A stretch of DNA of 64,000 nucleotides from Actinomycetota bacterium (lineage in GTDB: Bacteria > Actinomycetota > UBA4738 > HRBIN12): NCBI GenBank assembly GCA_036390995.1, contig DASWAT010000193.1:314-64313 (forward strand). Reading direction: 5' to 3'. Shown here in pieces: positions 42,271-58,175 of this stretch. The notes under the pieces were generated by a model, which was not told where the DNA came from, made no database searches, and saw only the letters and a program-made list of their open reading frames with translations. A program made the translations under genes and the position numbers. The first letter of the stretch is position 1; each line of letters starts with the position of its first letter.

Positions 42271-43056
42271 TCAGCCGGTGCCGCCCAGGAAGACCGCGAC
42301 CTTCTCCACGATCGACGGGATGGCGGCGAACAGCGTCTCCTGGCTCTCGAACATCAGCAGCTCGGAGTCCGGCAGGAGGTCGTGCAGGATGTATCCGAGC
42401 TCGGCCGGGTGGATGTCGTCGCCCTCGATGCAGATCAGCATGGTCGGCGCGGTCACCTTCCGGAGCAGGTCGCGATCGGGCACCGGCCAGTCCTCGATCA
42501 CGCCGCGGATGGCCCGGGCGACGCCCTCGGGATGCTCGTGCGCCCACATCACCTTATCGAGCTCCATCTTCCACGGGGTCTGCAGGTACTCGGCCACCCG
42601 CTGAGGGTCCGAGACGATGGCCTCGAGCGCCTCTTCGGGCGTCTTGCCATCGAGTTCGTCGGCGAGCGACCGGTACCGATCCTTGAAGCCGAAAGGCAGG
42701 TCGAGACCGGCGGGGAGCAGCCACACCATCCGGTCGAACCGATCCGGCTCGCGGCACAGCAGGTTGGCGATGGCTCCGGCACCGAGGGATGTGCCCACCG
42801 CGCACGTGGCGCCGTAGGCGTCGGCGACGGCCTCGACGTCGCGGCCGAAGTCCTCGAACCGGTACCCGGCCTCGGGGGCGCTCGAGCGCCCGTGGCCGCG
42901 GAAGTCGAACCGGACCGCGGTCCCGGGGAGGAGCGGCGTGAGCGCCGCAAGCTCCCTGCAGTTGTTCGTGAGACCGTGCGCCACGACCGTGACCGGCTCG
43001 CCGTCCCCGTCGATCTCGACGTGGAGCGTGACGTCGTTCGTAACGACCTGCGCCAA
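42271..43056 (-). CDS. Alpha/beta hydrolase
   Basis: AHGL, FDFRGHGRS, GTSLGAG and DDIHP; GGAGG RBS before the TTG. Confidence 0.82.
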   Translation of the reverse strand: MAQVVTNDVTLHVEIDGDGEPVTVVAHGLTNNCRELAALTPLLPGTAVRFDFRGHGRSSAPEAGYRFEDFGRDVEAVADAYGATCAVGTSLGAGAIANLLCREPDRFDRMVWLLPAGLDLPFGFKDRYRSLADELDGKTPEEALEAIVSDPQRVAEYLQTPWKMELDKVMWAHEHPEGVARAIRGVIEDWPVPDRDLLRKVTAPTMLICIEGDDIHPAELGYILHDLLPDSELLMFESQETLFAAIPSIVEKVAVFLGGTG

Positions 43057-43128
43057 ACTCGGACCTCCACGGGCTCGGTGTTCGAGACAGCCTACGGCGG
43101 GCGTCTGGGTTGCGTCGCGCGAGCGCGG

Positions 43129-43662
43129 CTAGCGACCCCGGAGCGCCGCGAGAGCCCGCCGGGCCTGATCCAGGTGGAACCGGTCGTGCCCGGCGATCAG
43201 CCGGAACGACAGATCCAGGCTCTCCGGACCTCGCTCCGCATGCATGCCGAGGCGCTCGCGCTCGGCCTCCGTGGTTCGGCCCCAGAGCGCCAGGTTCGCC
43301 TGCCGGAGCACCCCGAACACGTCCAGCAGCTCGCGCGGGTGGTCCTGTCCGTGCCGCAGGCGATCCACCCAGAGATCCTGGTCGTAGCCGGTCAGCGGGG
43401 GCTCGTCGTGCGCGAGGATCCACCGGTACCGGCCGGCGCACACGATCTCGGCGTCGGTGGCGTGCCCGAGGCACTCGAGCACGGACCACTCCGTGGGCTC
43501 CGGGCGCACCGCGAGGAGGTCGCCGGCCTGGGACACGAGGTCCGGCCAGGCGGCCAGCGTGGCCGTCTGCACCTCAACGGGATCGTCGTCGCCGAGGAGC
43601 CCGAGCAGGTGCCGCTGGTACCCGCCGGGATCGTCGATCGGATCGGGCGTGGGGACGGTCAC
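43129..43662 (-). CDS. DinB family protein
   Basis: EWSVLECLGHATDAE, YDQDLW and AGHDRFHLDQ; GTGA-coupled to the upstream fusion gene. Confidence 0.85.
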   Translation of the reverse strand: MTVPTPDPIDDPGGYQRHLLGLLGDDDPVEVQTATLAAWPDLVSQAGDLLAVRPEPTEWSVLECLGHATDAEIVCAGRYRWILAHDEPPLTGYDQDLWVDRLRHGQDHPRELLDVFGVLRQANLALWGRTTEAERERLGMHAERGPESLDLSFRLIAGHDRFHLDQARRALAALRGR

Positions 43663-46600
43663 TCGGCGACCTCGCCGTCGGTCGATCCGAGCTCGGCCGC
43701 GCCGGCGTTCGGCGACGCGGCATCGACCATGTCGTCCTGCACCGCGAGCTGCTCCTTGATGGATCGCGCCCAGATGTAGATCGCCGCCGTCACCAGCAGG
43801 AAGACGACCCCGGAGCCGACGAGGATGATCCGGGCCCGATCGCCGCTCCACACGAGCGTGAGGACCAGCGCGGGGACGATCCAGCCGAGGTTGTACGCGA
43901 TGTCGAACAGGCTGAACCCGCGCCCCCGGAAGTCGTCGGGCAGCGCCTGCTGCATGATCGTGTCGGCCGCGATCTTGCCGATGAAGAACCCCAGTGCGCC
44001 GATGAAGACGATCGCGCTGTAGCCGACGATCGTCGTGACGCCACCGAACAGGATCACGCCGATCCCCACCGCTGCCATCGACGTCACCAGCAACTGATAC
44101 GGGGGCACACGGTCCTTCAGCTTCTGCGCCAGGACCATGCCGATCGCCGCACCGATCGCTCCGAACGCCCCGGCGATGGCCACGACCGTCTTGTCGGAGT
44201 CCGCGCCGGAGAGGAGATGACGCGCCTCCAGCGCGAACGCGAGTGTCACGAAGCCGAAGAACTCCATCCGCAGGGCCTGGAACCCCGAAAGGCCCAGGGC
44301 GGCAGCGGGGCGCCCGAACACCTCCCGCACGCCCCGGACGATGTCGCCGAGCACGCGCTTCGCCTCGTCCACGAACCGGGTCACGTGCCGCTCGTACTCG
44401 AGCCGTTCCACCCGATTGGCCATCACGCCGGCGGACCCGTAGAGGATCGCTCCCAGAACCGCCACGATCCACGCCGGGGCGAGCGCGGTCCCCACCAGGG
44501 CCACGCCGCCGCCGAGCACCTGGAAGATCGCGCCGCCCGCCTGCGACAGCCCGTTGGCCTGCAGGAGGTCCTTGCCGTGGACCACGGCCGGCAGGCCCGC
44601 CGACTTGATGGCGAGCAGGATCCGCGTGCACGCGAGCGTGACGAGCACGGCCACGATGAGTACGACGTCGGGCAGCGCGTCGCCGCCGACGAGCAGGGCC
44701 ACCGCGGTCAGCGCCACGACGGCGGCTCGGAACAGGTTCGAGCGCGAAAGCAGCTCCCGGCGGTCGTAGCGATCGATGAACGCGCCGACGAACGGGCTCA
44801 CGAGCGTGTAGGGCACGTACAGGGCCAGGACGACGCCGAGGAGATACCGTGCCGAGGGAGCGCTCGTGACGTCGAACCCCTTCTGCCCGCCGAACGCGAT
44901 GGACTTCGCGAGCGACGCCTGGACGATGCCGTCCGCCGCCTGCGCGATGAACTGCGTGGTCATGAGCGCGGAGAAGCTACGGTTCGAGAAGACCGCGAAC
45001 ATCTCGTCGAAGAACCGCGAGAACGCCGCGAACAGCCGATCCAACCTGGGCTTCGCCAGCCGCAGCATCACGGCGATCGCAACCGCGAGTCCGATCGTCG
45101 CCCATCCGTCGGCCGCGCCGAACGGGGCGCGATGGGCGGCCACCACCACGATCCCGGCGATGATCGTGAGGGCGATCGAGATACCGGGAACGAGCGCGAC
45201 CTTCGTCCACACGTCCTCCAGGTCGAAGAACCGAGCGGAGATCAACCCGGGTACCACGAGCAGCAGCGCGAGCGCGATCAGCACCCGGAGCGTGTGTCCG
45301 AAGTTGCCGAACACCCCCGGGTGGTTCGCGTAGAGCTCGGCCGTCTGCCGTTCGGCTGCGCGCGCGGCATCCACCACCGCCGGAGAGGGCGTAGCGAGGT
45401 TGGGACCCGTGACCACCGCCATGTCGTCGCTGATCTTGATCAGGTAGTCGGGGGCGGGCTGCTGGTCGAGGAGCGCGGTGTTGTCGGTGTTCCCGTTGAA
45501 CTGGCGGACCAGGAAGGCGATCGGTGGCTCCGGGTACTCCTTCTCGAGGGTCTGGAGCTCGCGGAAGAAGCCGCGGGACATCTTGTTGTAGGTGGGATCC
45601 GCGAGCTGCGTCGGCCTGTTGGCCAGGAAGTCTTCGACGCTGCCGAAATACGACATCGATCGTTCCACGGCGTCGCCGGGCAGCCCGGTGCGCGACACGT
45701 TCGTGAACGTCTTCGACCACCCGTACGACTGGTAGGTGTCGCCGAAGTTCAGGATGAAGACGATCGGATGACCGGGCGCGGACTCCACCACGGCGCTGGC
45801 TGCCGCGAGCGCCGTCCGGGTCGGCTGGTCGATCCACTGGTTGTTCGGGTCCGCCCACTGGGACGCGTCGCGCCCACGGACCCACACGAACGCCAGCGCC
45901 CCGACCAAGACGGCAACCCCAAGAGCTCCGAGCACGCGCCGTCCGCCCTCGCGCCCCAGCAGCCACCGGGCGGCCACCCATACCCCGAGTCCGACCAGCG
46001 GCATGACGGCCGCCGTGGCGTTCATGAACCGGTAGTACGGATAGGCCTTGCCCAGGAGGAACCCGAAGACGCCGAGCAGCGGCAGGAGCCACAGGGCGGA
46101 GATGGTGCCGAACCCGGACGCCGGGCGGCGATCCCTGCGTGCCCGGTAGACCACCCAGCCGATCCCCAGCAGGATGAGCGGGAACGTGATGGCAGGCTGG
46201 AGCGAGAGCACCCACTGGCCGAGCCGCTTCTCGAACACGGCCTGCGTGTACGGCGGGGGAAGCGCTGCGTCGGCCAGCGATCCCTTCACGCCCCACGGCC
46301 CCACCAGCCACGAGGCCAGGCCGAGGATCATCCCGAAGCCGATCGACAGCAGGCTCGGGCCGTCTCGCCGGAGCGTCTCCCCCAGTGAGAGCCGGCTGGT
46401 CACGAAGTGCAGCGCGAACACGGCCATGAGCGAGGCGCCGAAGATCACGCACGTGGTGGGATGGGTGTACGCGGCAACGATCCCGAGCATGAACAGCGCC
46501 GTCCGGGCACCCCACGACGTTCGCCCCGGCCGGTAGAACGCGAGGGTGAGCGACAGGATGTACAGGACCGCGATGTTGTCGAGGTAGCCCACGTACGGCG

Positions 46601-47063
46601 TGGTCATGAACAGCGCCGCCGTGGCGAGCATCACCGACAGGTACAGGAGCGGGTCGCGGTGGTAGCGGTACCCGAACGCACCGAGCGCGAGGCCGGTGAG
46701 GATGGGGATCCCGATCATCATGAAGGCGCTGAACGTGTACAGGTCGATGCCCGCCACGCGCTGGAGGATCGATCCGTACAGGGGCACCGAGACCCTGTAC
46801 CCGCCGCCGAACATGTGGAACGGGCCCCAGTCGCCGGCGATGAGACCCGGGTCGTCGTGCATCATGAGGTTCGAGCGCCACGTGTACCAGGCAGGATCCC
46901 GCGTAGGTGCGCTGATGGAGGGGTCGCGGAGGAACGTCCAGCCGAACGCGAGGAGCAGAACGAGGATCGCGAAGACCAGGACGACCGCGCGGCCCGGGGC
47001 TCGGCTCTCTTCCTCCGGCACGCGGACGAGATCCTCGGCCGGGACCGACCTGGTGACCGCCAT
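43659..47063 (-). CDS. 1134-aa polytopic membrane protein: GT-C-like glycosyltransferase region fused to an MFS transporter
   Basis: N-terminal TM, then RDPAWY loop, AYTHP, YYRF and a soluble extracytoplasmic segment. The C-terminal ~440 aa are a 12-TM MFS (QFIAQAADG, FIDRYDRRELL, FRGRGFSLFD). The MFS call is firmer than the GT-C call. Confidence 0.7.
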   Translation of the reverse strand: MAVTRSVPAEDLVRVPEEESRAPGRAVVLVFAILVLLLAFGWTFLRDPSISAPTRDPAWYTWRSNLMMHDDPGLIAGDWGPFHMFGGGYRVSVPLYGSILQRVAGIDLYTFSAFMMIGIPILTGLALGAFGYRYHRDPLLYLSVMLATAALFMTTPYVGYLDNIAVLYILSLTLAFYRPGRTSWGARTALFMLGIVAAYTHPTTCVIFGASLMAVFALHFVTSRLSLGETLRRDGPSLLSIGFGMILGLASWLVGPWGVKGSLADAALPPPYTQAVFEKRLGQWVLSLQPAITFPLILLGIGWVVYRARRDRRPASGFGTISALWLLPLLGVFGFLLGKAYPYYRFMNATAAVMPLVGLGVWVAARWLLGREGGRRVLGALGVAVLVGALAFVWVRGRDASQWADPNNQWIDQPTRTALAAASAVVESAPGHPIVFILNFGDTYQSYGWSKTFTNVSRTGLPGDAVERSMSYFGSVEDFLANRPTQLADPTYNKMSRGFFRELQTLEKEYPEPPIAFLVRQFNGNTDNTALLDQQPAPDYLIKISDDMAVVTGPNLATPSPAVVDAARAAERQTAELYANHPGVFGNFGHTLRVLIALALLLVVPGLISARFFDLEDVWTKVALVPGISIALTIIAGIVVVAAHRAPFGAADGWATIGLAVAIAVMLRLAKPRLDRLFAAFSRFFDEMFAVFSNRSFSALMTTQFIAQAADGIVQASLAKSIAFGGQKGFDVTSAPSARYLLGVVLALYVPYTLVSPFVGAFIDRYDRRELLSRSNLFRAAVVALTAVALLVGGDALPDVVLIVAVLVTLACTRILLAIKSAGLPAVVHGKDLLQANGLSQAGGAIFQVLGGGVALVGTALAPAWIVAVLGAILYGSAGVMANRVERLEYERHVTRFVDEAKRVLGDIVRGVREVFGRPAAALGLSGFQALRMEFFGFVTLAFALEARHLLSGADSDKTVVAIAGAFGAIGAAIGMVLAQKLKDRVPPYQLLVTSMAAVGIGVILFGGVTTIVGYSAIVFIGALGFFIGKIAADTIMQQALPDDFRGRGFSLFDIAYNLGWIVPALVLTLVWSGDRARIILVGSGVVFLLVTAAIYIWARSIKEQLAVQDDMVDAASPNAGAAELGSTDGEVAE

Positions 47064-47086: not shown

Positions 47087-48781
47087 TTACGACGAGCCCG
47101 CGCGAGCCTCGGGCAGGCACGGGAGTCTGGACAGCATAGACGACGGGAAAGCGGCCGCGAACACGGTGTCGCTCTCGTGGCCGGCGGCCGGGACGTTCCG
47201 GTTCTTGTACGTCTGCTCCTGCGTGAGGCCGGCGATGAACTGTGAGATCTGCGCGAGCGTCACGCCGTTCGCCTTCAGCTCGGCGGGGTCGAGCCAGATC
47301 TCGGTCGCGCGCACCTTCTCGATGAGCGGCACGCGATCGCCGTCGCGATCGAACGCCTGCTCGATGAGCGACGTGAGCTTGTCGATGTCGATCATGAACG
47401 CGCCCGACACCGCCGGATCGCGCTGCGTGCCGTGGTCGGCGGTCAGGATCATGGCCCAGTTGCCCTGCCCGACCGTGCGGTTCAGGAAGTCGACGAACTG
47501 GCGCAGCGCGGCGTCCTGGTACTGCACGGCGTCGGACATCTCGAGACCGTCGGCGCTGAACAGGTGCCCGATCGTGTCGATGGCCTTGTAGTTCAGGTCG
47601 AGCAGGTCGGGGACGTCGTCCAGGCCGAAGCCCTCGCGCTGGAGGACGGTCTCGATCAGCTTCTCCTGGTAGGGCGTCCGAGCCGGCGTGTCGAAGCCGT
47701 TGTGGAGCTGGCTGAACGGGTGCCCTCGCCAGGCGTCGTCGAGCTTGCCGTCCGCCTGGTCGAGGGGGCGCGTGTACGCGGTGACCGGCGGCAGCGAGTT
47801 CACGTAGCTGGGGAACGTGTAGAAGGGAGCCATCGCGTCGGTGAGGTTCCAGACGCTCGACTCCGCGCCCCCGGTCGGTCCGAACTGGGCTTCGCGCGTG
47901 ACCGCGATGTCCTTGTCGCCCCCGCCCCACTCAGAGCCGTGGCTCATCATCATGATGTGGGCCGACAGGCTCGCGATACCGCCCACGATCGGGCGGTTGC
48001 CCATCGCCCGGTCGTAGAGGTCGGCCAGGGTCGGCTCCAACAGGAACGCGGGACCCTCGGCGTTCGGCTTCTGGATCCGGCCGTTCACCCGCATGTACTC
48101 GTCCACGAAGCCCGAATGCATCGGGAAAGCCCCCGTGCCGATGATCGAGTGGCCGGTCGGGGTGTTCGACGGGGAGGACCCCACGGTGGCGTTCGTGAAG
48201 AGCGCCCCGTGCGGCAGGAGGGAGCGCAGGTAGGGCCAGTCGTCCTTCCACCGGTTCAGGACGTCCCACCCGGCAGAGTCCCAGATCATCGTCACGAGGA
48301 GCTTCGGCAACGGCCGCTGATCGGCCGGAAGCAGGGCCTGCGTCTGGGCGCTTCCGTCGGGCGCGTCGAAGGGGAACTTCAGCAACGCTCCGGCCGTTGG
48401 GGCGACGTCTGCGAGCGTCACCGCGCGTGGGTACACGCCCGCGCGCACGTAGCCGGGGCCGTACAGGAAGACCGGGACGTCCTGCGTGTACGGATACGGG
48501 GTCGCGTGGGTGAGTCCTCCGTTCACGAAGTTCGGGTACTTCGGGATGATCTGGATGTCACCGCCTCGGCCGGGGAAGTATCCACGCCACGTCCGCAGCA
48601 GCACGTCGTGGGAGACGTGGGTGCACACCCGCTCGGCCAGCGCGCGGTTCGTGACGGGCGGTGGCGGCGACGGGGCTCCGGCCCCGCTCCCAGGCCCCGT
48701 GGGTGACGGCTCCGAGCCCGACGACGCGGTGCATGCCGCGAGGAGGAGGGCGAGAGCGCTCGCGGCCATCCGTCGTCTCAC
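47087..48781 (-). CDS. Alkaline-phosphatase-superfamily (PafA/NPP-like) lipoprotein, circularly permuted
   Basis: Lipobox LAAC; LTHA..VPVFLYGPG..DVAPT precedes the core KLLVTMIWD, NTPTGH, IDTIGH and ADHG. Confidence 0.88.
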   Translation of the reverse strand: MRRRMAASALALLLAACTASSGSEPSPTGPGSGAGAPSPPPPVTNRALAERVCTHVSHDVLLRTWRGYFPGRGGDIQIIPKYPNFVNGGLTHATPYPYTQDVPVFLYGPGYVRAGVYPRAVTLADVAPTAGALLKFPFDAPDGSAQTQALLPADQRPLPKLLVTMIWDSAGWDVLNRWKDDWPYLRSLLPHGALFTNATVGSSPSNTPTGHSIIGTGAFPMHSGFVDEYMRVNGRIQKPNAEGPAFLLEPTLADLYDRAMGNRPIVGGIASLSAHIMMMSHGSEWGGGDKDIAVTREAQFGPTGGAESSVWNLTDAMAPFYTFPSYVNSLPPVTAYTRPLDQADGKLDDAWRGHPFSQLHNGFDTPARTPYQEKLIETVLQREGFGLDDVPDLLDLNYKAIDTIGHLFSADGLEMSDAVQYQDAALRQFVDFLNRTVGQGNWAMILTADHGTQRDPAVSGAFMIDIDKLTSLIEQAFDRDGDRVPLIEKVRATEIWLDPAELKANGVTLAQISQFIAGLTQEQTYKNRNVPAAGHESDTVFAAAFPSSMLSRLPCLPEARAGSS

Positions 48782-48797
48782 GCCGGAAGCTCCGAGC

Positions 48798-50543
48798 TCA
48801 GCCGCCGCGGGCCTCCGGCAGACACGGCAGGTCCTTCATGATCGACGAGGGGAACGCGGCCTGGAAGACTCGATCGTTGGCCGTCGCCGGATCAACGGCG
48901 ACACCCGCCCCGGCCGTCTGTGCCTGCGTGAGCGTCATGAGGTACTGGGATACGTCGTCCAGCGTGTAGCCGTTCTGGTGCAGCTCCCTCGTGTCGATGA
49001 AGATCTGGGTGGGCTGGATCAGCTGGACGATGTGCGTCGTGTCGCCGTCGTGGTCGAACTTGGCATTGATGCCCGCCGCGATCGGCGTGGACGAGATCTG
49101 GAAGCCGCCCGAGACCCGCGGCGGGATCATGGACCCGTGGTCGGCGGTGAGCGCCAGGACCCAGTTGCCCTCGCCGACCTGCCGGTTCAGGAATCCGATG
49201 AATCCCTTCAGCGCGACGTCCTGGGCAACCACGGCGTCGCGCATCTCCAGCGAATCCACGCTCCACACGTGGCTGATGTAGTCGATCTCCTTGTAGTTCA
49301 CGTAGAGGAGGTCCGGGACGTCGTCGGCGCCGAACCTCTCGCGCCGGACCATCTCCTCCAGCACGCGTGTCTGGTAGGGCGTGCGTGCCGGCGTGTCGAA
49401 GCCGTTCAGGAGCTGCGCGATGTCGTTGTTCCGCCACTTGCCGTCGATCTGCCCATCGGCCGCGTCCACCGCGCGGACGTCGTCCTGGAACCCCGGCACG
49501 TCGTTCACGTAGCCCGGGAAGCGGTAGAACTGCTGCAGCAGCGGGCTGAGGTTCCACCTGAACGTCTCGGCGCCGAGCGTGTCGGCGCCCACGGCCTCCC
49601 GGGTCACCGCGATGTCCTTGTCGCCGCCGCCCCACATCGAGCCGTGCCCGAGCATGCCCAGGTGGATCGAGACCGTGCCGAGCTCACCGACCACGGGCTT
49701 GTTCGCCATGGCCCGGTCGTACAGGTCGGCCAGCGTCGGATCCATGAGGTACGCGGGTCCTTGCGCCCACGGTGTGGTGATCCTGTCGCCGATCCGGAAC
49801 CGATGACCGATCAGCTCGTGGTGGTCGGGGAACGCGCCGGTGCCGATCGTGGCGTGGATCTGCGCCGTGCTGGTGGGCGAGGAACCGACCGACGTGTTCG
49901 CGTACCACGTGCCCTTCGGGATGAGGGAACGAAGGTACGGCCACGCGTCCTTCCATCGGTCGAGGACGTCGGTGCCGCCCGCATCCCACACCATCGTGAC
50001 GATCAGCTTCGGCGGTTGTTGACCGGGAACGATCGCCTCGTCCATGGGGATGCCGTCGGGGGCGTGGTACTGGTCGAACTGCAGCAGCTTCGCTGCGGTC
50101 GGCGCGATCCCCGCGACGGTCACAGGGCGATCCACCGGGCCGCGGGCCTGGATGTGACCCGGCCCGTACCAGAACATCGGCACGTCGTTCACGTAGTCCC
50201 AAGGGCCGACGTGCGGCAGACCAGAGCCGATGAAGTCGTATTCCTTCGGAAGGAGCTGGATCTCGGGTCCTCGGTCCGCCTCGTAGCCGCGCCAGGTCCG
50301 GAGCAGCCACTCGTGGGGGATCGAGCAGGCGATCTCCTGCACACTGCCCGGCGCAACGATGGCGGACGATGACGCCGGCGTGACGGTCGCGATGGCCACC
50401 GGAGAAGCCGCGGGAGCGGACGGCGACGCCCTCGTGGGGGAAGGAGCGGCGACCTCCTGCGCGCCCGAACCGGTGCAGGCCCCGGCCGCCAGCGACGTGG
50501 CGAAGGCGAGCGCCAAGAGGCGTCTGGAGGTCACGAAGCGCAT
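48798..50543 (-). CDS. Second PafA/NPP-like lipoprotein paralog, same permuted order
   Basis: Lipobox AGAC; LPHV..VPMFWYGPG..GIAPT, then KLIVTMVWD, STAQIH, IDYISH and ADHG. Confidence 0.88.
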   Translation of the reverse strand: MRFVTSRRLLALAFATSLAAGACTGSGAQEVAAPSPTRASPSAPAASPVAIATVTPASSSAIVAPGSVQEIACSIPHEWLLRTWRGYEADRGPEIQLLPKEYDFIGSGLPHVGPWDYVNDVPMFWYGPGHIQARGPVDRPVTVAGIAPTAAKLLQFDQYHAPDGIPMDEAIVPGQQPPKLIVTMVWDAGGTDVLDRWKDAWPYLRSLIPKGTWYANTSVGSSPTSTAQIHATIGTGAFPDHHELIGHRFRIGDRITTPWAQGPAYLMDPTLADLYDRAMANKPVVGELGTVSIHLGMLGHGSMWGGGDKDIAVTREAVGADTLGAETFRWNLSPLLQQFYRFPGYVNDVPGFQDDVRAVDAADGQIDGKWRNNDIAQLLNGFDTPARTPYQTRVLEEMVRRERFGADDVPDLLYVNYKEIDYISHVWSVDSLEMRDAVVAQDVALKGFIGFLNRQVGEGNWVLALTADHGSMIPPRVSGGFQISSTPIAAGINAKFDHDGDTTHIVQLIQPTQIFIDTRELHQNGYTLDDVSQYLMTLTQAQTAGAGVAVDPATANDRVFQAAFPSSIMKDLPCLPEARGG

Positions 50544-50630
50544 ACGAAACAACACCACGGGCGAGTGTGCAACCTAACAGACCTGCGGAGCGACGGACCC
50601 TCGGCCCGATCCCGCGGTACCGTGGAGTGC

Positions 50631-51959
50631 GTGTTCGGGCGAAGGCTTCTGATCCTCCTCGTGCTCCTGGGTCTGCTGGCGATCCCCGCAGGGGCACTGC
50701 GGGCCGCATGCGTGGGGCGCTCGTGCGCGGTCGAAGTCGGATCGGTCCGGGTTCCCTTCTGCCCCCTCCCCGCAGCGCTGAGGGCCGATCTGGTGGCGGG
50801 GTTCCGGGAGGGACGCTCCCCGGACGTCCTGGCGGTCGCGCGCACCCCCACGGTGCGAGGCGCGACCCGCGACCCCGGAGTGGCCCCGCCGTGGCCGTTC
50901 CTGACCACGCGGCCGGACACCTCGGTTCCGATCGTGTTCGCCGGCACCGGCGTGGATCCCGCCGCCGTGGTCCCCGGCGGAACGGGTCTCGATCAGATCG
51001 CGCCCACGCTCGCCGACGTCATCGGGTTCCGGCGGCCGCATCCGGAGGTCCGCGCCGGCGTCGCCGTCCGGGGCGTGGCCGACGGCGCCCACCCCCGCCT
51101 GATCCTCGAGATCGCGTGGAAGGGGGTGGGCCGCGCCGACCTGCGCTCCGCCCCGGACGCGTGGCCGTTCCTTTCGTCACTGCTTCGGACCGGGGCGGGA
51201 ACGCTCGACGGCACGACCGGGTCCCTGCCTCTGGACCCCACGGCCACGCTCACGACGATCGGAACCGGCGGGCTCCCCTCGCAGCATGGGATCACGGGGA
51301 CACTCGTCCGCGACAAGCGTGGGAAGGTCGTCACCGCGTGGGGAAGGGGATCGCCGCTCTCGGTGATCGCGACGCTCCCAGACGACCTCGACCAGCGAGA
51401 GAACCAGGCCTCGAAGATCGGCCTGGTGGCCACCGACCCGTCCGATCGGGGGCTCACCGGCGGCAACTGGTACCTCGGACACGATCACGACGCCTTCGTC
51501 ACCGCATCGGGTCCCGGAGCCGTGACCGCGGCCTCGGGGCTCCTGGCGAGCGGATTCGGGCGGGACCGCGTTCCGGACGTCCTGGCCGTGGTTCTGGACG
51601 GCTCGATCCGGTCCATGGACCTTCGAACCCGGCAGATCGTCGTCGCCGCGCGCGAGGCGTCGGCGGGCTCCGTCGTGGTGGCCGTCGCCGGCTCGGGTTC
51701 GGCCGCGGCGCACCGGGGTGCCGATGTCCGCGTCGCCGACGTCGTGGCGAAGGTGGAGACCGCCGTCCCCGGCGACATCGATGTGGTGACGGGTGCCGTT
51801 CCCGGCGGACTGTTCCTGAACCAGGACGCGCTGACCTCGCTCGGGATCACCGGGCAGGCCGCCGTGCAGGCGCTCCTGGACGTCGAGGCCCCGGATGGGT
51901 CGAAGCTGTTCGACGACGCGTTCCAGGGGTTCGCGGTGTCCTTCGCGAGGTACTGCTGA
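50631..51959 (+). CDS. Third, degenerate permuted AP-superfamily protein (probable pseudoenzyme)
   Basis: VPIVFAGTG..DQIAPTLA, RLILEIAWK, WPFLSSLL and TTIGTGGLPSQHG. Metal-ligand D/H residues are missing. Confidence 0.72.
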   Translation: MFGRRLLILLVLLGLLAIPAGALRAACVGRSCAVEVGSVRVPFCPLPAALRADLVAGFREGRSPDVLAVARTPTVRGATRDPGVAPPWPFLTTRPDTSVPIVFAGTGVDPAAVVPGGTGLDQIAPTLADVIGFRRPHPEVRAGVAVRGVADGAHPRLILEIAWKGVGRADLRSAPDAWPFLSSLLRTGAGTLDGTTGSLPLDPTATLTTIGTGGLPSQHGITGTLVRDKRGKVVTAWGRGSPLSVIATLPDDLDQRENQASKIGLVATDPSDRGLTGGNWYLGHDHDAFVTASGPGAVTAASGLLASGFGRDRVPDVLAVVLDGSIRSMDLRTRQIVVAAREASAGSVVVAVAGSGSAAAHRGADVRVADVVAKVETAVPGDIDVVTGAVPGGLFLNQDALTSLGITGQAAVQALLDVEAPDGSKLFDDAFQGFAVSFARYC

Positions 51960-52972
51960 TGACCGACGTCGTCACCGCCCCACGCGCGCGCACCGCCTCG
52001 GGACGCACGTTCGCCGCGATCCTGGTGGCCCTCGTGCTGACCGCGCTCCTGCTCCGGCTCTCCGCACCGGAGCGGGTTGCGTGGATCCAGACCTTCTTCG
52101 TGATCTTCGGTTCGCTGCTGATCCAGGCGCTGCCGTTCGTCCTGATCGGCGCCCTGGCGGCCGCGATCATCGAGGTGTTCGTGCCGATCGGAACGCTCGA
52201 GAAGCTCGCGAGCCTCCCTCGGGCGCTGCAGCTGCCCGCCGCGGCACTCGCCGGACTGGCGTTCCCGATCTGCGAATGCGGCTCGGTGCCGGTGGCACGC
52301 CGCCTGGCCGCGAAGGGGTTGAAGCCCTCGGCGGCGGTGACGTTCATGCTGGCCGCGCCGGTCCTGAATCCGGTCGTGATCGCGTCGACCTTCGTCGCGT
52401 ACCGGGGGCGAACCGCCCTGTGGACCATGGTGATCGGGAGGTTCACCCTCGGGTTGCTGGTGGCGGTGGCGGTGGGCTGGGTCGTGGGCGACCGGTCGAA
52501 GGACGAGCTCCTGCGGCCCCGCCCCGACGAAGGGCACGCGCATCACGTCGTCGAGCTCGCCCCTCCCGAGGCGAGGTGGAGGCGCTTCTTCGTCCACATG
52601 GGCAACGACTTCCTGTACATGGGGCGGTTCCTGGTGCTCGGGGCGACCATCGCGGCGATGGTCCAGACGTTCCTGCCTGCGTCCGTGATCGGCGGCGTCG
52701 CGGGGATCCCGGTGGTCGACCTGCTCGTGATGATGGCGCTCGCGTTCGTCCTGTCGCTGTGCAGCGAATCGGACGCCTTCATCGCGGCCTCGTTCGTGCA
52801 GTTCGGCCCGGCGGCCCAGCTCGCCTTCCTCGTGTTCGGCCCGATGGTCGACTTCAAGCTGGGCGCGCTCTACATGGGGACGTTCCGGAAGGGGTTCTTC
52901 CGGATGCTGGTGATCGCGGTCGCGGCATCGACGCTCGTGGGCACGATGTGGGTCAAAGTGATCGCCGGATGA
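51959..52972 (+). CDS. DUF318 / YcgR-like permease
   Basis: QALPFVLIG, PICECGSVP, LAAPVLNP, CSESDAF and FGPMVD. Confidence 0.9.
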   Translation: MTDVVTAPRARTASGRTFAAILVALVLTALLLRLSAPERVAWIQTFFVIFGSLLIQALPFVLIGALAAAIIEVFVPIGTLEKLASLPRALQLPAAALAGLAFPICECGSVPVARRLAAKGLKPSAAVTFMLAAPVLNPVVIASTFVAYRGRTALWTMVIGRFTLGLLVAVAVGWVVGDRSKDELLRPRPDEGHAHHVVELAPPEARWRRFFVHMGNDFLYMGRFLVLGATIAAMVQTFLPASVIGGVAGIPVVDLLVMMALAFVLSLCSESDAFIAASFVQFGPAAQLAFLVFGPMVDFKLGALYMGTFRKGFFRMLVIAVAASTLVGTMWVKVIAG

Positions 52973-53739
52973 GCGACGTCGTCGTCCCCCGCCCAGCGGC
53001 ACCCGCGGCGACGCATGCCAGGATGCGCCCGGCGCCCACGGGGTGGAGCCCATCCCGGGTCGGCGGGGGTCTGGTCCTCGGCGCCTGGGCGACGCTGTTC
53101 TGGTTCCTCCTCCTGTCCGGACGGGACAACCTGTACCTGTCCACTCGCACCAGCTGGGTCGTCCCGGTCGGGGCGGCGCTGCTCTCCGCCGCCTCGCTCG
53201 GCCGGCTGGCCTCGGCCAGGGTGCGCGCCCCCGAGCCGCTCGGCCGGCGCGAGGCGTGGATCCTCGGGGCGATGGTGCTGCCGGTCGTGCTGGTGCTCGC
53301 GCTGCCGCCCGCGACCCTCGGGAGCTTCTCGGCCGGCAAGCGCGCAGGCTTCGCGGCCTCGGGAGTGGCCACGCCGCTCGGCGACATCGGGACCGGACAG
53401 CTGACGCTGATCGACGTCGCGGCGGCGCAGACGACGAAGCAGGGTGAGACCGCGCTGGCGAAGCGGGCGGGCGAGGCGGTGGGATTCGTCGGCTTCGTCA
53501 CGCGCTACGCCGATACGCCGGCCGACGAGTTCCTGCTGTCCCGTTACATCGTCACCTGCTGCGTCGCCGATGCCACGATCGCCCAGGTTCGCGTGGTGAA
53601 CGTCACGCCGGGCGCGTTCGCGGCGAACCAGTGGGTCGAGGTCAAGGGCACGATCTACCCGCTGGGACGCGAGGTCATCGTGAACGCATCATCGGTCGCC
53701 AGCGTGCCGCGGCCCTCACGGCCGTACCTCACGCCCTGA
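52969..53739 (+). CDS. TIGR03943 / YcgQ-like (DUF1980) membrane protein
   Basis: LYLSTR, GFVGFV, RYIVTCCVADA, QWVEVKG and PSRPYL. Confidence 0.88.
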   Translation: MSDVVVPRPAAPAATHARMRPAPTGWSPSRVGGGLVLGAWATLFWFLLLSGRDNLYLSTRTSWVVPVGAALLSAASLGRLASARVRAPEPLGRREAWILGAMVLPVVLVLALPPATLGSFSAGKRAGFAASGVATPLGDIGTGQLTLIDVAAAQTTKQGETALAKRAGEAVGFVGFVTRYADTPADEFLLSRYIVTCCVADATIAQVRVVNVTPGAFAANQWVEVKGTIYPLGREVIVNASSVASVPRPSRPYLTP

Positions 53740-54199
53740 CGGCGCGCCGCCCAGACCCGGCGTTCCGGACGGAACACGCGGTGCACAAGCCGAAGATGTC
53801 CGCCTGATGCGTGGACACGGTGAAGCCTCGCCGCCGGGCGGCCGCGTTCGCCCACCCCTCGATCTCACACGAAGGGATCTCGACCACCAACCCGCACCGC
53901 TCGCAGATCAGGTGATGGTGGTGGCCCGGATCGCAGAGCTTGTAGGAGAGCTCGCCCTCGCCGGCCGGGAAGGTTCGAGCGTACCCGGCTTCCTCGAGGG
54001 CCTGCAGCGTTCGGTACACGGTGGCCAGGCCCGGGCCCGTGCTGCGACGCGAGAGCGCAGCGTGGAGCGCCTGCGCGGTGATCGGCCGCCGCGACCGCTC
54101 CAGAGCCTCGACGATCGTTTCCCGCTGGCGGGTGACCCGGAGGCCGGCAGCGGACAGCATCGTCTGCGGATCGGCCACGAGGCCCCCCGGGCGCGTCAC
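53729..54199 (-). CDS. zur: Fur-family regulator, probably Zur (start 54199 or 54178)
   Basis: LRVTRQR, LATVYRTL, HHHHLICERC and FGLCTAC; last gene of the znu operon. Confidence 0.8.
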   Translation of the reverse strand: MTRPGGLVADPQTMLSAAGLRVTRQRETIVEALERSRRPITAQALHAALSRRSTGPGLATVYRTLQALEEAGYARTFPAGEGELSYKLCDPGHHHHLICERCGLVVEIPSCEIEGWANAAARRRGFTVSTHQADIFGLCTACSVRNAGSGRRAVRA

Positions 54200-55026
54200 G
54201 AGGCCACCGTTCGTGGATGCCGCCGCGCCGCCCGGCGTCCGAGGACCGCGGCGAGAACGAACACCACCGCCGAGGTGAGCACGATCGTGCCGCCCGGCGA
54301 CACCTCGCCCTGCACGAGCGCGATCACCAAGCCGACGATGGCCGAGAAGAGCCCGGCCGTCGCAGCCCAGAACATCGAGCCGCGGAACGAGTGCGCCAGC
54401 CGGGAGCCGGCGGCCACCGGAACGACGAGCAGGGACGCGATGAGGAGCAGCCCCACAACGCGCATGCCTGCCGCGACCAGCAGCGCAGTGAGGACCACGA
54501 GCAGCACATTCAGCCGGTCCACCGGCAGCCCCGACGCCCTGGCGGTCTCTTCGTCCAGAGCCACCGCGACGAGCTCCTTGTAGAAGACCGCGGTGAACGT
54601 CACCACCACAGCGCACAGCGCCGCGATGGCCGCGACATCGCCCCACGTGATGGTGAAGATCGAGCCGAACAGCACTCCCTGGACCGACGCCGTGAGGCCG
54701 CCGCGAGCCGAGATGATCACGAGCCCGAGCGCCAGACCCAGGTAGAAGACCAATGCGAGCGACAGGTCGCCGGCCAACCGGCCTCGCACCCGGAGCCACT
54801 CGAGGCCGATCGCGCCGATCACCGCGATGGCCAGCGCGCCCCACAGCGGGGCGACACCGATGGCCACGCCGAGCCCTACTCCCGCGAACGCAAGGTGACC
54901 CACGGCGTCCCCGATCAGCGAGAGACGTCGCTGCACGAGGAAGCAGCCGATCACCGGCGCCGCGATCCCCACCGCCGCTCCGGCCACGTACGCCTGCACC
55001 GCCCACACCAGGAACAGCCTGCTCAT
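54196..55026 (-). CDS. znuB: Zn/Mn ABC transporter permease
   Basis: LIGDAVGH, LFGSI, LDEETARASG, VGLLLIASLL and PGGTIV. Confidence 0.85.
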   Translation of the reverse strand: MSRLFLVWAVQAYVAGAAVGIAAPVIGCFLVQRRLSLIGDAVGHLAFAGVGLGVAIGVAPLWGALAIAVIGAIGLEWLRVRGRLAGDLSLALVFYLGLALGLVIISARGGLTASVQGVLFGSIFTITWGDVAAIAALCAVVVTFTAVFYKELVAVALDEETARASGLPVDRLNVLLVVLTALLVAAGMRVVGLLLIASLLVVPVAAGSRLAHSFRGSMFWAATAGLFSAIVGLVIALVQGEVSPGGTIVLTSAVVFVLAAVLGRRAARRHPRTVAS

Positions 55027-55748
55027 GTCCTCCCCGCGTGCTGGTGATAGCGATGGTGGAACTCGTCGTGGGTGATCGGCTCGAGCCGGCCCTCCTCGAG
55101 GACCAGGATCCGTTCACACACCTCATGGAACTCGTCGGGGTCGTGCGACACGGCGACCACCGTGGCACCGGCTTCCGCCCGGCGATGGAACTCGCGGACG
55201 ACGCCCGGACGAGCGGCCGGGTCGATCCCGGTGGTCGGCTCGTCGAGCAGCAGGAGCTCCGGATCCCCCACGAGGGCGCGGGCCAGGATCGCCCGTTGCT
55301 GCTGCCCGCCCGACAGCTCGAACAGGCACTCCGCCGACAGATCGCCCAGACCGACCGCATCGATCGCGGCGTTCACCCGACGCCAGTCCGACCGGCCCAT
55401 CCGGCCGAACAGCGGCTTCGACGGCACCAGACCGGCGGCGACCACCTCGGTCACCGAGACCGGGAGGGAGGTCACCGTGCGGAGGCCCTGCGGCGCGTAG
55501 CCGATCCTTCGCAGGATGGACGGGTCGGTGGGCGAGCCGCCGAGCACCCGGACCGTTCCCGCCTCCGGACGGAGCAGCCCGACGAGGAGCCGTAGGAGCG
55601 TCGACTTGCCGCTTCCGTTCGCTCCCGCCAGGACGGCGAACTCGCCGGGCTCCAACCGGAGGTCGAGCCCGTCGAAGATCGGGGCAGCTCCGTAACCGAA
55701 CCGGAGCCCGGAGACCTCGACGGTGAGGCCCGATGCGGCGGCAGCCAT
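55023..55748 (-). CDS. znuC: Zn/Mn ABC transporter ATP-binding protein
   Basis: GANGSGKST, LSGGQQQR, LDEPTTGID and SHD; His-rich tail. Confidence 0.85.
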   Translation of the reverse strand: MAAAASGLTVEVSGLRFGYGAAPIFDGLDLRLEPGEFAVLAGANGSGKSTLLRLLVGLLRPEAGTVRVLGGSPTDPSILRRIGYAPQGLRTVTSLPVSVTEVVAAGLVPSKPLFGRMGRSDWRRVNAAIDAVGLGDLSAECLFELSGGQQQRAILARALVGDPELLLLDEPTTGIDPAARPGVVREFHRRAEAGATVVAVSHDPDEFHEVCERILVLEEGRLEPITHDEFHHRYHQHAGRT

Positions 55749-56638
55749 CACGTCCCGCACCGCAGCCCCTCCTCGAGGCTCGACAGGTTGGCTCGCATCA
55801 CCGAGAGGTAGTCGCCCGAGGTCGGGGCAGATTCGAGCGTCCCGAGCGGCAGCGCCGGCACTCCCACATCGGAGGCGACGCTCTGCCCCACCCGGCGGCC
55901 CTCGTCGGTGGCCTCGTAGAAGACGGCGGGCGCGGCAAGGCCCTGCTCGATGGCTTGGGATGCCGCCTGGATCCTGGTGGCCGACGGCTCGCTCTCGGGC
56001 GTCAGGCCCTCGATCCCCAGCTGCCGGAGCCCGTACCGTGCCGCCAGATAGCCGAACGCCTCGTGCGTGGTGACGAAGGTCGTGAATGCGCAGCTCGAGA
56101 GCTCCTTCCGGTACGCGGCGTCGAGCGAGCCGAGGGCCGAGAGCGTGGCGTCCTCGCGGTCTCGGTAGCCGGCCTCGTGCTGTGGATCGGCCGAGGCGAG
56201 CCCGTCGGCGGCGCGCCGCACGATCTGCTCCATCAGCACGGGATCCAGCCACACGTGCGGGTCGGCCGCGAGGTCCCCCTCGGTGGAGGCGAGCAGCTGC
56301 AGTCCCTTCGAGACCGCGATCACCTGCCCCTGCGCGTCCGCGACCGCGCGCTCGACGTCGGGCTGGAACCCCAGGTCCCCGAGATAGAGAACGAGGGGCG
56401 CCGTCGTGAGATCCGCGCGCTGGGCCGCGGTGAGGGTCGTGTCGTGCGCCTCCGTCCCCGGCGGGGTGAGGTCCTCCACGTCCACCCGGTCGCCCCCCAC
56501 CCGCTGTGCGACCCACGCGAGCGGGTGGAAGGCCGCGACCACCTTCATGCGGCCCTCGGAGCCTCCCGAACCCGTACACGCGGACGCTGCCAGGAGGAGA
56601 ACGAGGGTCCCACCCGTGAGCCGCCATGCCCTGGCCAT
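55748..56638 (-). CDS. znuA: Zn/Mn ABC transporter substrate-binding lipoprotein
   Basis: Lipobox ASAC; EAHD, DPHVWLDP and HEAFGYLA. Confidence 0.85.
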   Translation of the reverse strand: MARAWRLTGGTLVLLLAASACTGSGGSEGRMKVVAAFHPLAWVAQRVGGDRVDVEDLTPPGTEAHDTTLTAAQRADLTTAPLVLYLGDLGFQPDVERAVADAQGQVIAVSKGLQLLASTEGDLAADPHVWLDPVLMEQIVRRAADGLASADPQHEAGYRDREDATLSALGSLDAAYRKELSSCAFTTFVTTHEAFGYLAARYGLRQLGIEGLTPESEPSATRIQAASQAIEQGLAAPAVFYEATDEGRRVGQSVASDVGVPALPLGTLESAPTSGDYLSVMRANLSSLEEGLRCGT

Positions 56639-56655
56639 GTCGCGAAAGGGTAGAC

Positions 56656-56674
56656 GAGAATGATTATCAGTTTC
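56656..56674. promoter_or_regulatory. Fur-family (Zur) box upstream of znuA
   Basis: Minus strand reads GAAACTGATAATCATTCTC, 16/19 to the classical GATAATGATAATCATTATC; lies 3 nt upstream of the TACCCT -10. Confidence 0.72.
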
Positions 56675-57074
56675 AACCCGGGGAGCGGCCCCCCGCCCGA
56701 GACCCGTGCTCGCGGACGGCCCGGCGGATCTCCCCCAGCGCCCGCGCCGACCCGAACCCGAGCTGGCGGGCCCGGCGGGCGAAGCGGTCCGCTGCAGCGG
56801 CCAGCCGTGCCTCGGCCTCGTCCGGTGCCGACGGCAGCGTGTCTGCTACGAAGGTGCCCCGCCTGCCCCGACCGACGATCCACCCGGCCGACTCGAGCTC
56901 CCGGTAGGCCCGGGCCACCGTATTCGCCGCGAGCCCGAGTTCCTCGGCCAGGGCGCGCACGGTCGGCAGCCGGTCGCCCGGCAGGAGACGGCCCCCACCG
57001 ATCGCAGCGGCGATCCGGTCGCGTAGCTGTGTGGAAACCGGGGTCTTCGACGAAGGCTCGATGCGCAGATCCAC
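56673..57074 (-). CDS. GntR family regulator (YtrA-like)
   Basis: PGDRLPTVRALA, NTVARAYRELE and GRGRRGTFV. Confidence 0.88.
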   Translation of the reverse strand: MDLRIEPSSKTPVSTQLRDRIAAAIGGGRLLPGDRLPTVRALAEELGLAANTVARAYRELESAGWIVGRGRRGTFVADTLPSAPDEAEARLAAAADRFARRARQLGFGSARALGEIRRAVREHGSRAGGRSPG

Positions 57075-57140
57075 GGCGCCATCATGACCCATGCCCCCGC
57101 CGGTTTGAGAACGCGCCTGCGCGCCGGTAGCCTCCATCCC

Positions 57141-58175
57141 ATGGGCGTCCTCGTCGGCATCGGGTTGTTCACGGGCCAGCTCCCGGCAGGATCGGAACGG
57201 ACCTTCGCGCGCGAGTACCGGGAGATGCTCGACCTCGTCCGGCTGGCGGAGGCGCTCGGGTTCGACTCCGCCTGGGTGAGCGAGCACCACGGGGCGTCCG
57301 ACGGCTACCTCCCCTCCCTGCTGGCGATGCTGGCCGCCTTCGCCGCGTCCACCGAGCGGCTCCTGCTGGGGACCGGAGTGGTCCTCACCCCGTTGCACGA
57401 TCCGATCCGCCTGGCGGAGGATGCGGCGGTCGTCGACCAGCTCTCGGACGGACGTCTGATCCTTGGCCTCGGGCTGGGCTGGCGCCAGGAGGAGTTCCGG
57501 ATGTTCGGCGTGCCGGCTGCCGAGCGGCTCCAACGCACGGTCGAGACGGTCGAGATCCTGCGCCGGGCGTGGACGGGGCAGCGGTTCTCGTTCCAGGGCC
57601 GCTCGTTCCGGTACGACCGCGTCCGGGTCACCCCGCCGCCCGCACGAGCGGGCGGTCCTCCGATCTTCCTCGGTGGCTACACGGAACGCGCCGTTCGCCG
57701 GGCCGGACGGCTCGGCGACGGCTACATCACGGACGCCGACGCCCTGGATGAGGTGCGTCCGGTCATGCGGCTCTTCGACGAGGGCGCGCGGGAAGCGGGC
57801 AAGGATCCTCGCGGCATGGGGCTGGCGCTGTTGCAGAACGTGTTCGTCGCGCGCGAGGGTGACGCGTGGCAGATCGCACGTCCCGGCGTGGTCCACCAGC
57901 TCGGGGCGTACACGGCGTGGGACGAGGGAGCCGACACGCCGGACCGCGACGAGCTCGTTCCCAGGGCCGACGACGAGGAGGCCCTTCGGAGGTCCACGGC
58001 CGCGGGAACCCCCGAGGAGGTGGCCCACGCCCTTCGACCGCTCGTGAACGCCTTCGGCGACCGGGAGCTGCATCTCGTGCTCCGGCTGCACTACCCGGGC
58101 ATGGACTTCGACACGGCAAGCCGTGCGGTGGAGGCGTTCGGAGAAGAGGTGCTCCCCGCGCTGAAGGGGAGCTGA
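57141..58175 (+). CDS. LLM-class flavin-dependent oxidoreductase
   Basis: GFDSAWVSEHH, HDPIRLAED, LSDGRLILGLGLGW and AGRLGDG. Confidence 0.9.
   Translation: MGVLVGIGLFTGQLPAGSERTFAREYREMLDLVRLAEALGFDSAWVSEHHGASDGYLPSLLAMLAAFAASTERLLLGTGVVLTPLHDPIRLAEDAAVVDQLSDGRLILGLGLGWRQEEFRMFGVPAAERLQRTVETVEILRRAWTGQRFSFQGRSFRYDRVRVTPPPARAGGPPIFLGGYTERAVRRAGRLGDGYITDADALDEVRPVMRLFDEGAREAGKDPRGMGLALLQNVFVAREGDAWQIARPGVVHQLGAYTAWDEGADTPDRDELVPRADDEEALRRSTAAGTPEEVAHALRPLVNAFGDRELHLVLRLHYPGMDFDTASRAVEAFGEEVLPALKGS

Follow-up and report, generated by a model that had tools for sequence, protein, structure and literature searches.

Circularly permuted PafA-like phosphoesterases and a non-catalytic paralogue in a conserved gene cluster of uncultured Actinomycetota

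Three adjacent genes, here called A, B and C, occupy positions 47,087 to 51,959 of a 64,000-nucleotide stretch of DNA from an Actinomycetota bacterium (GenBank assembly GCA_036390995.1, contig DASWAT010000193.1, positions 314 to 64,313 of the forward strand), which we refer to at its full length as the window. They are paralogues in the branch of the alkaline phosphatase superfamily that holds PafA and the nucleotide pyrophosphatase/phosphodiesterases (NPPs), and each of them opens with the segment that is last in the canonical enzymes and continues from there directly into the canonical N-terminal strand. This rearrangement is real and old. We consider it highly probable that A and B are two-zinc phosphoesterases of the NPP/PafA branch anchored by lipid, natural circular permutants that go back to a single permutation and use the standard mechanism of the superfamily, and that C is a non-catalytic relative. 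What is undescribed is not the enzyme chemistry, which is familiar, but the topology of the chain, the dead paralogue and the cluster in which the genes lie.

Three paralogues of one family

A preliminary description of the window, made from its sequence alone, had delimited three open reading frames (ORFs) here, and we recovered all of them with exactly the same boundaries (Table 1). It had taken them for three adjacent copies of one family. Paralogy held for A, B and C, with the qualification that the third copy, C, lies on the opposite strand and is catalytically dead. The GC content at third codon positions is 0.92 in A, 0.90 in B and 0.88 in C, as expected of real genes, in a window that is about 70% GC overall. 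A and B are 51% identical and separated by 16 nt, and the next gene, M, starts 23 nt downstream of A; C is divergent from B and borders directly on a permease gene. The true start of B is possibly the ATG at 50545-50543, and that of C is probably some 20 codons further downstream than annotated.

In a Pfam search, PF01663 (Phosphodiest) was the sole family above threshold for A (77.2 bits) and B (74.4 bits, with a cut-off of 23), and its match was restricted to residues 163-455 of A and 189-477 of B; C scored 19 bits, under the cut-off. Against NF042991, the NCBIfam equivalog model for PafA, A and B scored 110.6 and 103.7 bits, well under the 650-bit cut-off.

Order of the chain

The preliminary description had proposed that the family is circularly permuted relative to PafA, SPAP/PhoK and NPP, and on this point split alignments and a rotation test agree. 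The motifs on which the proposal was built are present in A, and in the proposed order: GYFPGRGGDIQII at residues 67-79, LTHAT at 90-94, VPVFLYG at 102-108, DVAPT at 125-129 and PKLLVTMIWD at 159-168. When A was compared with PDB sequences using phmmer, its best match was PafA (5tj3), to which it aligned in three non-collinear pieces, A59-140 with PafA 439-522, A156-225 with 15-86 and A374-455 with 266-347. (Residue numbers in PafA alignments follow the chain sequence of 5tj3, to which 11 must be added for the published numbering, so that chain T68, D27 and H475 are T79, D38 and H486.) SPAP/PhoK aligned with A in the same three-piece pattern.

A profile built from 72 family members matched PafA more strongly (E 2.4e-35), and the order was still non-collinear: profile positions 67-163 aligned with PafA 436-534, 169-239 with 16-88 and 387-533 with 267-417, with E-values from HMMER of 2e-3, 1.4e-18 and 6.7e-8 for the respective pieces. 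The old N-terminal strand begins five profile positions past the old C-terminal segment, and the protein ends at about PafA residue 435. Canonical enzymes have the Asp strand first and the segment with the last His at the C-terminus. That order was not found here, as the His segment (59-150) precedes the Asp strand (159-168). The last Zn-ligand His, H92 (codon 48506-48508), thus sits in the relocated segment, and it is kept in 71 of the 72 members.

For the rotation test we moved the alignment columns of A45-149 behind those of A150-564 and compared the native and rotated hidden Markov models (HMMs) with five more canonical homologues, from Spirosoma, Chondrinema, Persicobacter, Prevotella and Alisedimentitalea (Bacteroidota and Alphaproteobacteria; plasmid-annotated, three of them named PafA). 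The native HMM gave three significant pieces in non-collinear order with all five, and after rotation the pieces were collinear and consistently spaced, again with all five. Profile-profile comparison with hhalign behaved in the same manner. In the native order there were two matches, one of profile positions 76-509 with template positions 7-456 (score 176, E 1e-22) and one of positions 2-108 with 434-545 (score 104, E 7e-13). The rotated profile gave a single match, of positions 3-518 with 19-542 of the 545 template columns (a span of 524), with 450 aligned columns, a score of 261 and an E-value of 2.5e-34. Neither the family profile nor hhalign revealed a duplicate His-bearing segment at the C-terminus. 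Significant pieces that are swapped, a match that runs end to end once the chain is rotated, and the lack of a duplicate are together what defines a circular permutation at the sequence level.

A circular-shift Smith-Waterman scan of A and B against three of the PafA homologues gave a more mixed picture. A peaked at the expected rotation with Spirosoma (residue 155) and Persicobacter (residue 145), and B with Spirosoma only; there was no peak for A or B against Chondrinema, nor for B against Persicobacter. We attribute the missing peaks to the divergent middle region, which interrupts the local alignment path.

A permuted order could also be mimicked by wrong gene boundaries, frameshifts or a chimeric assembly within a tandem run of canonical genes. 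These genes do form tandem arrays, with gaps of 16-23 nt, and frameshifted fusions do occur in databases, an example being the 927-aa protein P0173. However, in every ORF the relocated segment is immediately preceded by a signal peptide and lipobox and the stop codon comes after the cap domain, and what follows A, the final copy of the array, is gene M and not an orphan C-terminal segment. Low-GC members in other phyla carry the same order as single genes, and third-codon-position GC is uniform along the ORFs. The order is also identical in loci with one copy (L007-L012, L035 and L038), and therefore does not come from a mis-set boundary within a tandem array. Nor is it an assembly chimera, since independently assembled contigs from two soil metagenome studies cross both junctions with 0-22 differences; one soil run covers 48162-49634 and 49605-50366 with zero differences, and the other covers 47601-48618 and 48687-50216. 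We regard an artefact as effectively refuted, its probability being very small. P0173 was also considered as a duplication intermediate and rejected, as it is a frameshifted read-through of two adjacent genes.

Predicted fold and active site

The model of A made with AlphaFold2 (AF2) from the 72-sequence alignment has a mean predicted local distance difference test score (pLDDT) of 87.3 and a predicted template-modelling score of 0.88, and in it A takes the alpha/beta fold of the alkaline phosphatase type. The relocated segment is modelled at a pLDDT of 86-98 and the linker 151-158 at 96-97; residues 17-33, in the lipoprotein linker, fall below 50. In a Foldseek search of the PDB with this model, the top 50 matches all belonged to the alkaline phosphatase superfamily. 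The best was PafA (E 5.8e-11, probability 1.0), and the next neighbours were SPAP, phosphonoacetate hydrolase and Xac NPP.

Through the alignments, the catalytic residues of PafA (published numbering) can be located in A as H92 (H486), D168 (D38), T207 (T79), D402 (D305), H406 (H309), D449 (D352) and H450 (H353), and in B they are H116, D192, T230, D426/H430 and D473/H474. The preliminary description had credited A and B with all six metal ligands and the Thr nucleophile, and this is borne out across the family: all seven positions are invariant or nearly so in the 72 members (the T207 position is Thr in 69 and Ser in 3), and 50 of 55 full-length representatives of clusters at 50% identity retain the complete catalytic set H-D-T-H-D-H-D-H. 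Given the conservation of ligands and nucleophile, A and B are very probably active two-metal phosphoryl-transfer enzymes.

Substrate preference is harder to read. The Lys and Arg of the PafA SLKDR motif had been described as missing from A and B, with a diesterase preference as the suggested consequence. They are indeed absent, K162 falling in a gap and R164 lying opposite S273 in the hhalign alignment. Loss of K162/R164 turns PafA into an equal mono- and diesterase (bioRxiv 10.1101/2020.11.24.383182), which makes the suggestion a reasonable one for A and B, though no more than an inference. In the same alignment PafA N100, which is named with T79, K162 and R164 in the title of PDB entry 5TOO, falls opposite E228 in A and a His in B-type copies; distant permuted members retain the equivalent Asn. 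The family also has an insert of its own with charged residues that are invariant in the 72 members (H275, H281, D289, D291, R296, E297, E307, R368 and K399). With N100 replaced and these family-specific residues present, the specificity of A and B is not callable from sequence.

A patch of strain variation in A touches the same region. Between 48008 and 48161 (residues ~207-258), other metagenomes differ from the window by 19 substitutions, mostly synonymous, which change MHS221-223 to RRT and M230 to I in the loop equivalent to PafA HGIAGN (N100). Gene conversion from B was considered as its source and rejected, as just 6 of the 19 variant bases match B.

Gene C, a conserved pseudoenzyme

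C aligns with A across the junction (BLASTP E 9e-15, A67-295 with C79-313) and thus shares the permuted order. We scored the conservation of its residues in 51 orthologues from related loci. The position of D168 is mostly Lys (39 of 51), T207 is replaced by Pro and H211 by Leu, the DxxxH motif is deleted, the DH motif has become GT and the position of H92 is variable. The structural motifs GTG and APT and the terminal ARYC are kept in the orthologues, and C has both terminal cysteines, in VPFCP and in the terminal ARYC. As the catalytic residues are all gone in the 51 orthologues, C is a conserved pseudoenzyme, which on this pattern of conservation we take to be a permuted paralogue that has been kept in non-catalytic form.

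Predicted lipid anchor and new termini

A and B are predicted to be bacterial lipoproteins. Ahead of the relocated segment, A has a signal peptide with a lipobox and a linker rich in Pro and Ser, modelled at a pLDDT below 50 (Table 1), and the lipobox of B reads AAGAC28; the lipobox Cys (Cys17 in A) is kept in 70 of the 72 family members. Two further cysteines flank the break point. Cys53 (codon 48623-48625) lies just ahead of the relocated segment, and the invariant Cys555 (codon 47117-47119) lies nine residues from the C-terminus. Among the 55 full-length representatives the two occur together in 34, neither occurs in 19 and the case is mixed in 2 (Fisher p 1.4e-12); on reading the sequences, one of the mixed cases is apparently the lipobox Cys caught within the ±4-column search window. 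In the actinobacterial clade, where this Cys pair is conserved, a Cys53-Cys555 disulfide probably staples the new termini together, and a bond that re-closes the break in the chain would be the simplest reading of the pair.

Distribution of the permuted family

Close homologues number about 2000 in a set of 5.8 billion proteins, where they are labelled only as "alkaline phosphatase family protein", "type I phosphodiesterase" or "hypothetical protein". An exhaustive search of cluster representatives placed at least 174 clusters at 50% identity in the permuted family (E <= 1e-30), with full-length matches in a single stretch down to 28% identity. The family extends beyond Actinomycetota: one cluster includes a Candidatus Sericytochromatia protein, and the distant members, from low-GC organisms, share the order of the motifs and the break point. 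One such protein (P0340, L086 6001-7572), 29% identical to A, is encoded directly after lolCD-bamA-skp in a low-GC diderm genome, a setting very unlike that of A and B although, once more, related to the envelope.

In contigs of ~185,000 species-representative genomes, relatives are encoded at 488 places, of which the best 80 are nearly all in metagenome-assembled genomes of uncultured Actinomycetota, a few having broader or doubtful labels. Metagenomes from soil, sludge and wetland also contain the sequence of the window itself. Across the best 80 loci (L001-L080) the arrays hold from 1 to 5 active permuted copies, with 1 in L007-L012, 5 in L047, 3 in the relatives L001 and L003 and 2 in the window. 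The closest related locus, L005 (JBHGAT010000005.1), has the same cluster with proteins 81-88% identical and is labelled Candidatus Velamenicoccus archaeovorus (Omnitrophota), probably through an error of binning or naming.

A conserved gene cluster

Comparison of the window proteins by tblastn with the fetched related loci (the best 80 of the 488 places) revealed a common plan, in which 1-5 tandem active copies are followed by gene M and, divergently, C is followed by an ArsP_1 permease and a TIGR03943/DUF1980 subunit. We count 76 loci from uncultured Actinomycetota with the conserved cluster, and the order of array and M together with the divergent pair of C and permease is kept, down to ~45-50% identity, in nearly all loci of sufficient length. 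M follows the array directly in most loci whose contig extends past it and is displaced by 1.3-1.6 kb in six. The pair of C and permease is present in 53 of the 80 loci, most of the others being cut off on that side. In the window, C, the permease gene and the TIGR03943/DUF1980 gene are apparently co-transcribed.

M is a large membrane protein, named merely "MFS transporter" in databases. Its C-terminal third is indeed such a transporter (a Pfam match to MFS_1) and has a weak resemblance to the lysophospholipid-transporter half of Aas (E 3e-5). The N-terminal 720 residues have no significant sequence match in Pfam, NCBIfam or the PDB. Their AF2 model (pLDDT 83) was matched by Foldseek to STT3, AftA, ArnT, PglB, DPY19 and ALG9, with E-values of 1e-5 to 6e-4 for the first four and up to 2e-3 for the whole set, and template-modelling (TM) scores of 0.40-0.52, and a motif at residues 61-69, RDPAWYTWR, is invariant in 39 aligned homologues. 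By this model the N-terminal part has a multi-span GT-C fold and would be a putative glycosyltransferase.

Proposed origin, mechanism and function

In the account that we favour, A and B would be anchored by lipid on the outer face of the membrane. Their chain begins at the PafA loop that leads from the cap domain to the last core segment (chain ~435/436, published ~446/447), passes through the old C-terminal segment with H92, crosses a linker of eight residues to reach the old N-terminal strand with D168, continues through the helix of the Thr207 nucleophile, the DxxxH motif (D402/H406) and the DH motif (D449/H450), and ends after the cap domain. During catalysis, a Thr alkoxide activated by Zn would attack phosphorus to form a covalent phospho-Thr, which Zn-activated water would then hydrolyse. 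Most likely, tandem copies fused and both ends were then trimmed, and this rearrangement appears to have arisen once, as distant members share the break point.

Several observations weigh against this account. The middle insert of A (226-373) is modelled at lower confidence, with a pLDDT of 59-84. The sequential TM score between the model of A and PafA is 0.47-0.51, a modest value for a confident homologue, which is what a permutation would yield and so fits one without being proof of it. A and B do not conserve the second-shell residues N100, K162 and R164 of PafA, and they could be poorly active on simple phosphate esters or act on them differently. A promoter/terminator scan gave no promoter-like site, and inspection of the B/C intergenic region by eye (no Pho-box search was run) gave neither a palindrome for a metal or phosphate regulator nor an AT-rich one of the Zur type.

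What the enzymes do for the cell admits two readings that we hold to be equally good, each of them somewhat short of an even chance. A and B may be ordinary secreted phosphatases or diesterases that scavenge phosphate, their linkage to M and the permease being incidental or purely regulatory. Their closest characterised relatives, PafA and PhoK/SPAP, scavenge phosphate, the source is soil, where mineralisation of organic phosphorus is common, genes for nutrient acquisition typically vary in copy number as these do (1-5), and a phytase lies near one related locus. Against this reading, the array, M and the divergent C-permease pair stay together down to ~45-50% identity in nearly all loci of sufficient length, the immediate neighbourhood holds no pst, phoU or phoR genes, and the residues that go with monoesterase activity (K162 and R164, plus N100) are missing. 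The constant linkage to the fusion of a GT-C domain with a transporter suggests a role at the cell envelope, on a phosphorylated envelope or lipid-linked substrate, instead of or besides phosphate scavenging. A and B may accordingly be phosphotransferases or hydrolases of an envelope pathway that work with M, with C as the non-catalytic partner of the permease; they might process a donor or product of the GT-C enzyme linked to polyprenyl-(pyro)phosphate, or add a phospho-substituent to a glycan or remove it. The operon with the GT-C-MFS fusion is strictly conserved in loci of sufficient length, the transporter part of M has its weak likeness to Aas, A and B are predicted to be anchored at the membrane surface, and the distant diderm member adjoins lolCD-bamA-skp. 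The alkaline phosphatase superfamily also contains the envelope phosphotransferases LtaS, EptA and OpgB. These, however, are membrane-embedded enzymes of the sulfatase-like branch, unlike A and B, and what speaks for an envelope pathway is purely contextual, with neither donor nor acceptor to be named.

A bolder version of the envelope reading, which we think rather unlikely, is that the permuted enzymes and their dead paralogue belong, together with the GT-C-MFS fusion and the two-part permease, to an undescribed system by which uncultured soil Actinomycetota modify or recycle their envelope. The substrate would be lipid- or glycan-linked phosphate instead of free organophosphate, and the enzymes would have both termini on the side next to the membrane, stapled by the disulfide. 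If this were true, permutation would, by this placement of the termini, have let the branch act as a lipid-anchored enzyme beside its membrane partner.

Relation to known enzymes

A and B share with PafA (Elizabethkingia meningoseptica; 5TJ3/5TOO, NF042991) the Thr nucleophile, the six Zn ligands, the large cap and auxiliary regions and a location outside the cytoplasm, which for A and B is a predicted one. They differ in the rotation of the chain, with new termini at PafA chain ~435/436, in K162, R164 and N100, none of which they conserve, and in having the family-specific insert (H275, H281, D289, D291, R296, E297), the lipoprotein anchor and the terminal Cys pair. SPAP/PhoK (Sphingomonas; 3Q3Q, 5XWI) is the second-best match by both sequence and structure, with the same three non-collinear pieces; it has the canonical order, and its similarity is much weaker (E 6e-15). 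The NPPs (Xanthomonas NPP 2GSN and ENPP1/3/5/6) have in common with A and B the PF01663 domain, the two-Zn site, the Thr nucleophile and the absence of a Lys/Arg pair of the PafA type, whereas they are collinear, have a much smaller auxiliary region and conserve an Asn (PafA N100) that is Glu or His in A and B.

Natural circular permutants are known elsewhere, among the GH70 glucansucrases (relative to GH13), the swaposins and some DNA methyltransferases. These are events of the same type, in which the fold is kept and the chain is rotated, plausibly by tandem duplication and trimming, in unrelated folds. Literature searches on circular permutation combined with the alkaline phosphatase superfamily, PafA or nucleotide pyrophosphatase returned nothing relevant, a paper on the distribution of PafA (PMC8812569) mentions neither permutation nor Actinobacteria, and no model in the Pfam and NCBIfam libraries that were searched represents the permuted order; permutation in this superfamily is apparently undescribed.

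PafA and the NPPs are closely studied models for how an active site controls specificity for mono- or diesters. A natural permutant that is ancient and diverse offers a ready test of how connectivity affects folding and the assembly of the metal site, since the Zn ligand that was last in the chain is now the first to be synthesised. There are practical consequences for annotation as well. The match to PF01663 covers just A163-455, and domain-based pipelines therefore miss the segment that bears the His; proteins now labelled simply "alkaline phosphatase family protein" can be annotated better, and surveys of soil phosphorus cycling that use canonical PafA/PhoK models would under-count or mis-classify the permuted enzymes. 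The family also gives a handle on an abundant, unstudied cluster that ties phosphoesterases to a GT-C glycosyltransferase-transporter fusion in uncultured soil Actinomycetota.

Features of the window and neighbouring genes

Table 1. Genes of the cluster, segments of the protein A and neighbouring genes, in window coordinates.
Feature	Residues of A	Position	Strand	Description	Basis
Gene A		47087-48781	minus	permuted PafA-like phosphoesterase, 564 aa, predicted lipoprotein	
Gene B		48798-50558	minus	second permuted paralogue with catalytic residues, 586 aa	
Gene C		50565-51959	plus	permuted paralogue, 464 aa, pseudoenzyme	
Signal peptide and lipobox	1-17	48731-48781	minus	lipobox LLAAC, Cys17 the presumed lipid-attachment site	read from sequence
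Pro/Ser-rich linker	18-44	48650-48730	minus		sequence
Relocated segment	59-150	48332-48607	minus	C-terminal in canonical enzymes (PafA chain 436-534)	alignments
Linker	151-158	48308-48331	minus	joins old C-terminus to old N-terminus	profile gap of ~5 residues
Canonical core	159-455	47417-48307	minus	D168, T207 nucleophile, D402/H406, D449/H450	alignments
Cap region and tail	456-564	47090-47416	minus	cap region (PafA chain ~348-435) and new C-terminal tail	alignments
Gene M		43659-47063	minus	1134-aa membrane protein, GT-C-fold domain (~700 aa, predicted) fused to MFS transporter	
ArsP_1 permease		51959-52972	plus		family search
TIGR03943/DUF1980 subunit		52972-53739	plus		family search
DinB_2 family protein		43129-43650	minus	neighbour downstream of M	
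Alpha/beta hydrolase		42271-43128	minus	neighbour downstream of M	
Luciferase-like monooxygenase		57027-58175	plus	neighbour	

The ArsP_1 permease has a weak resemblance to the SO_0444 family of Cu/Zn efflux transporters. The cluster is adjoined by a zinc-uptake operon on the minus strand (53729-56845), which encodes ZnuA, ZnuC, ZnuB and a Fur-family (Zur-type) regulator; the same adjacency is found in the related locus L001 and is absent from L003. On the other side, the DinB_2 and alpha/beta hydrolase genes also lie downstream of M in L001, and L003 has the hydrolase without DinB_2.

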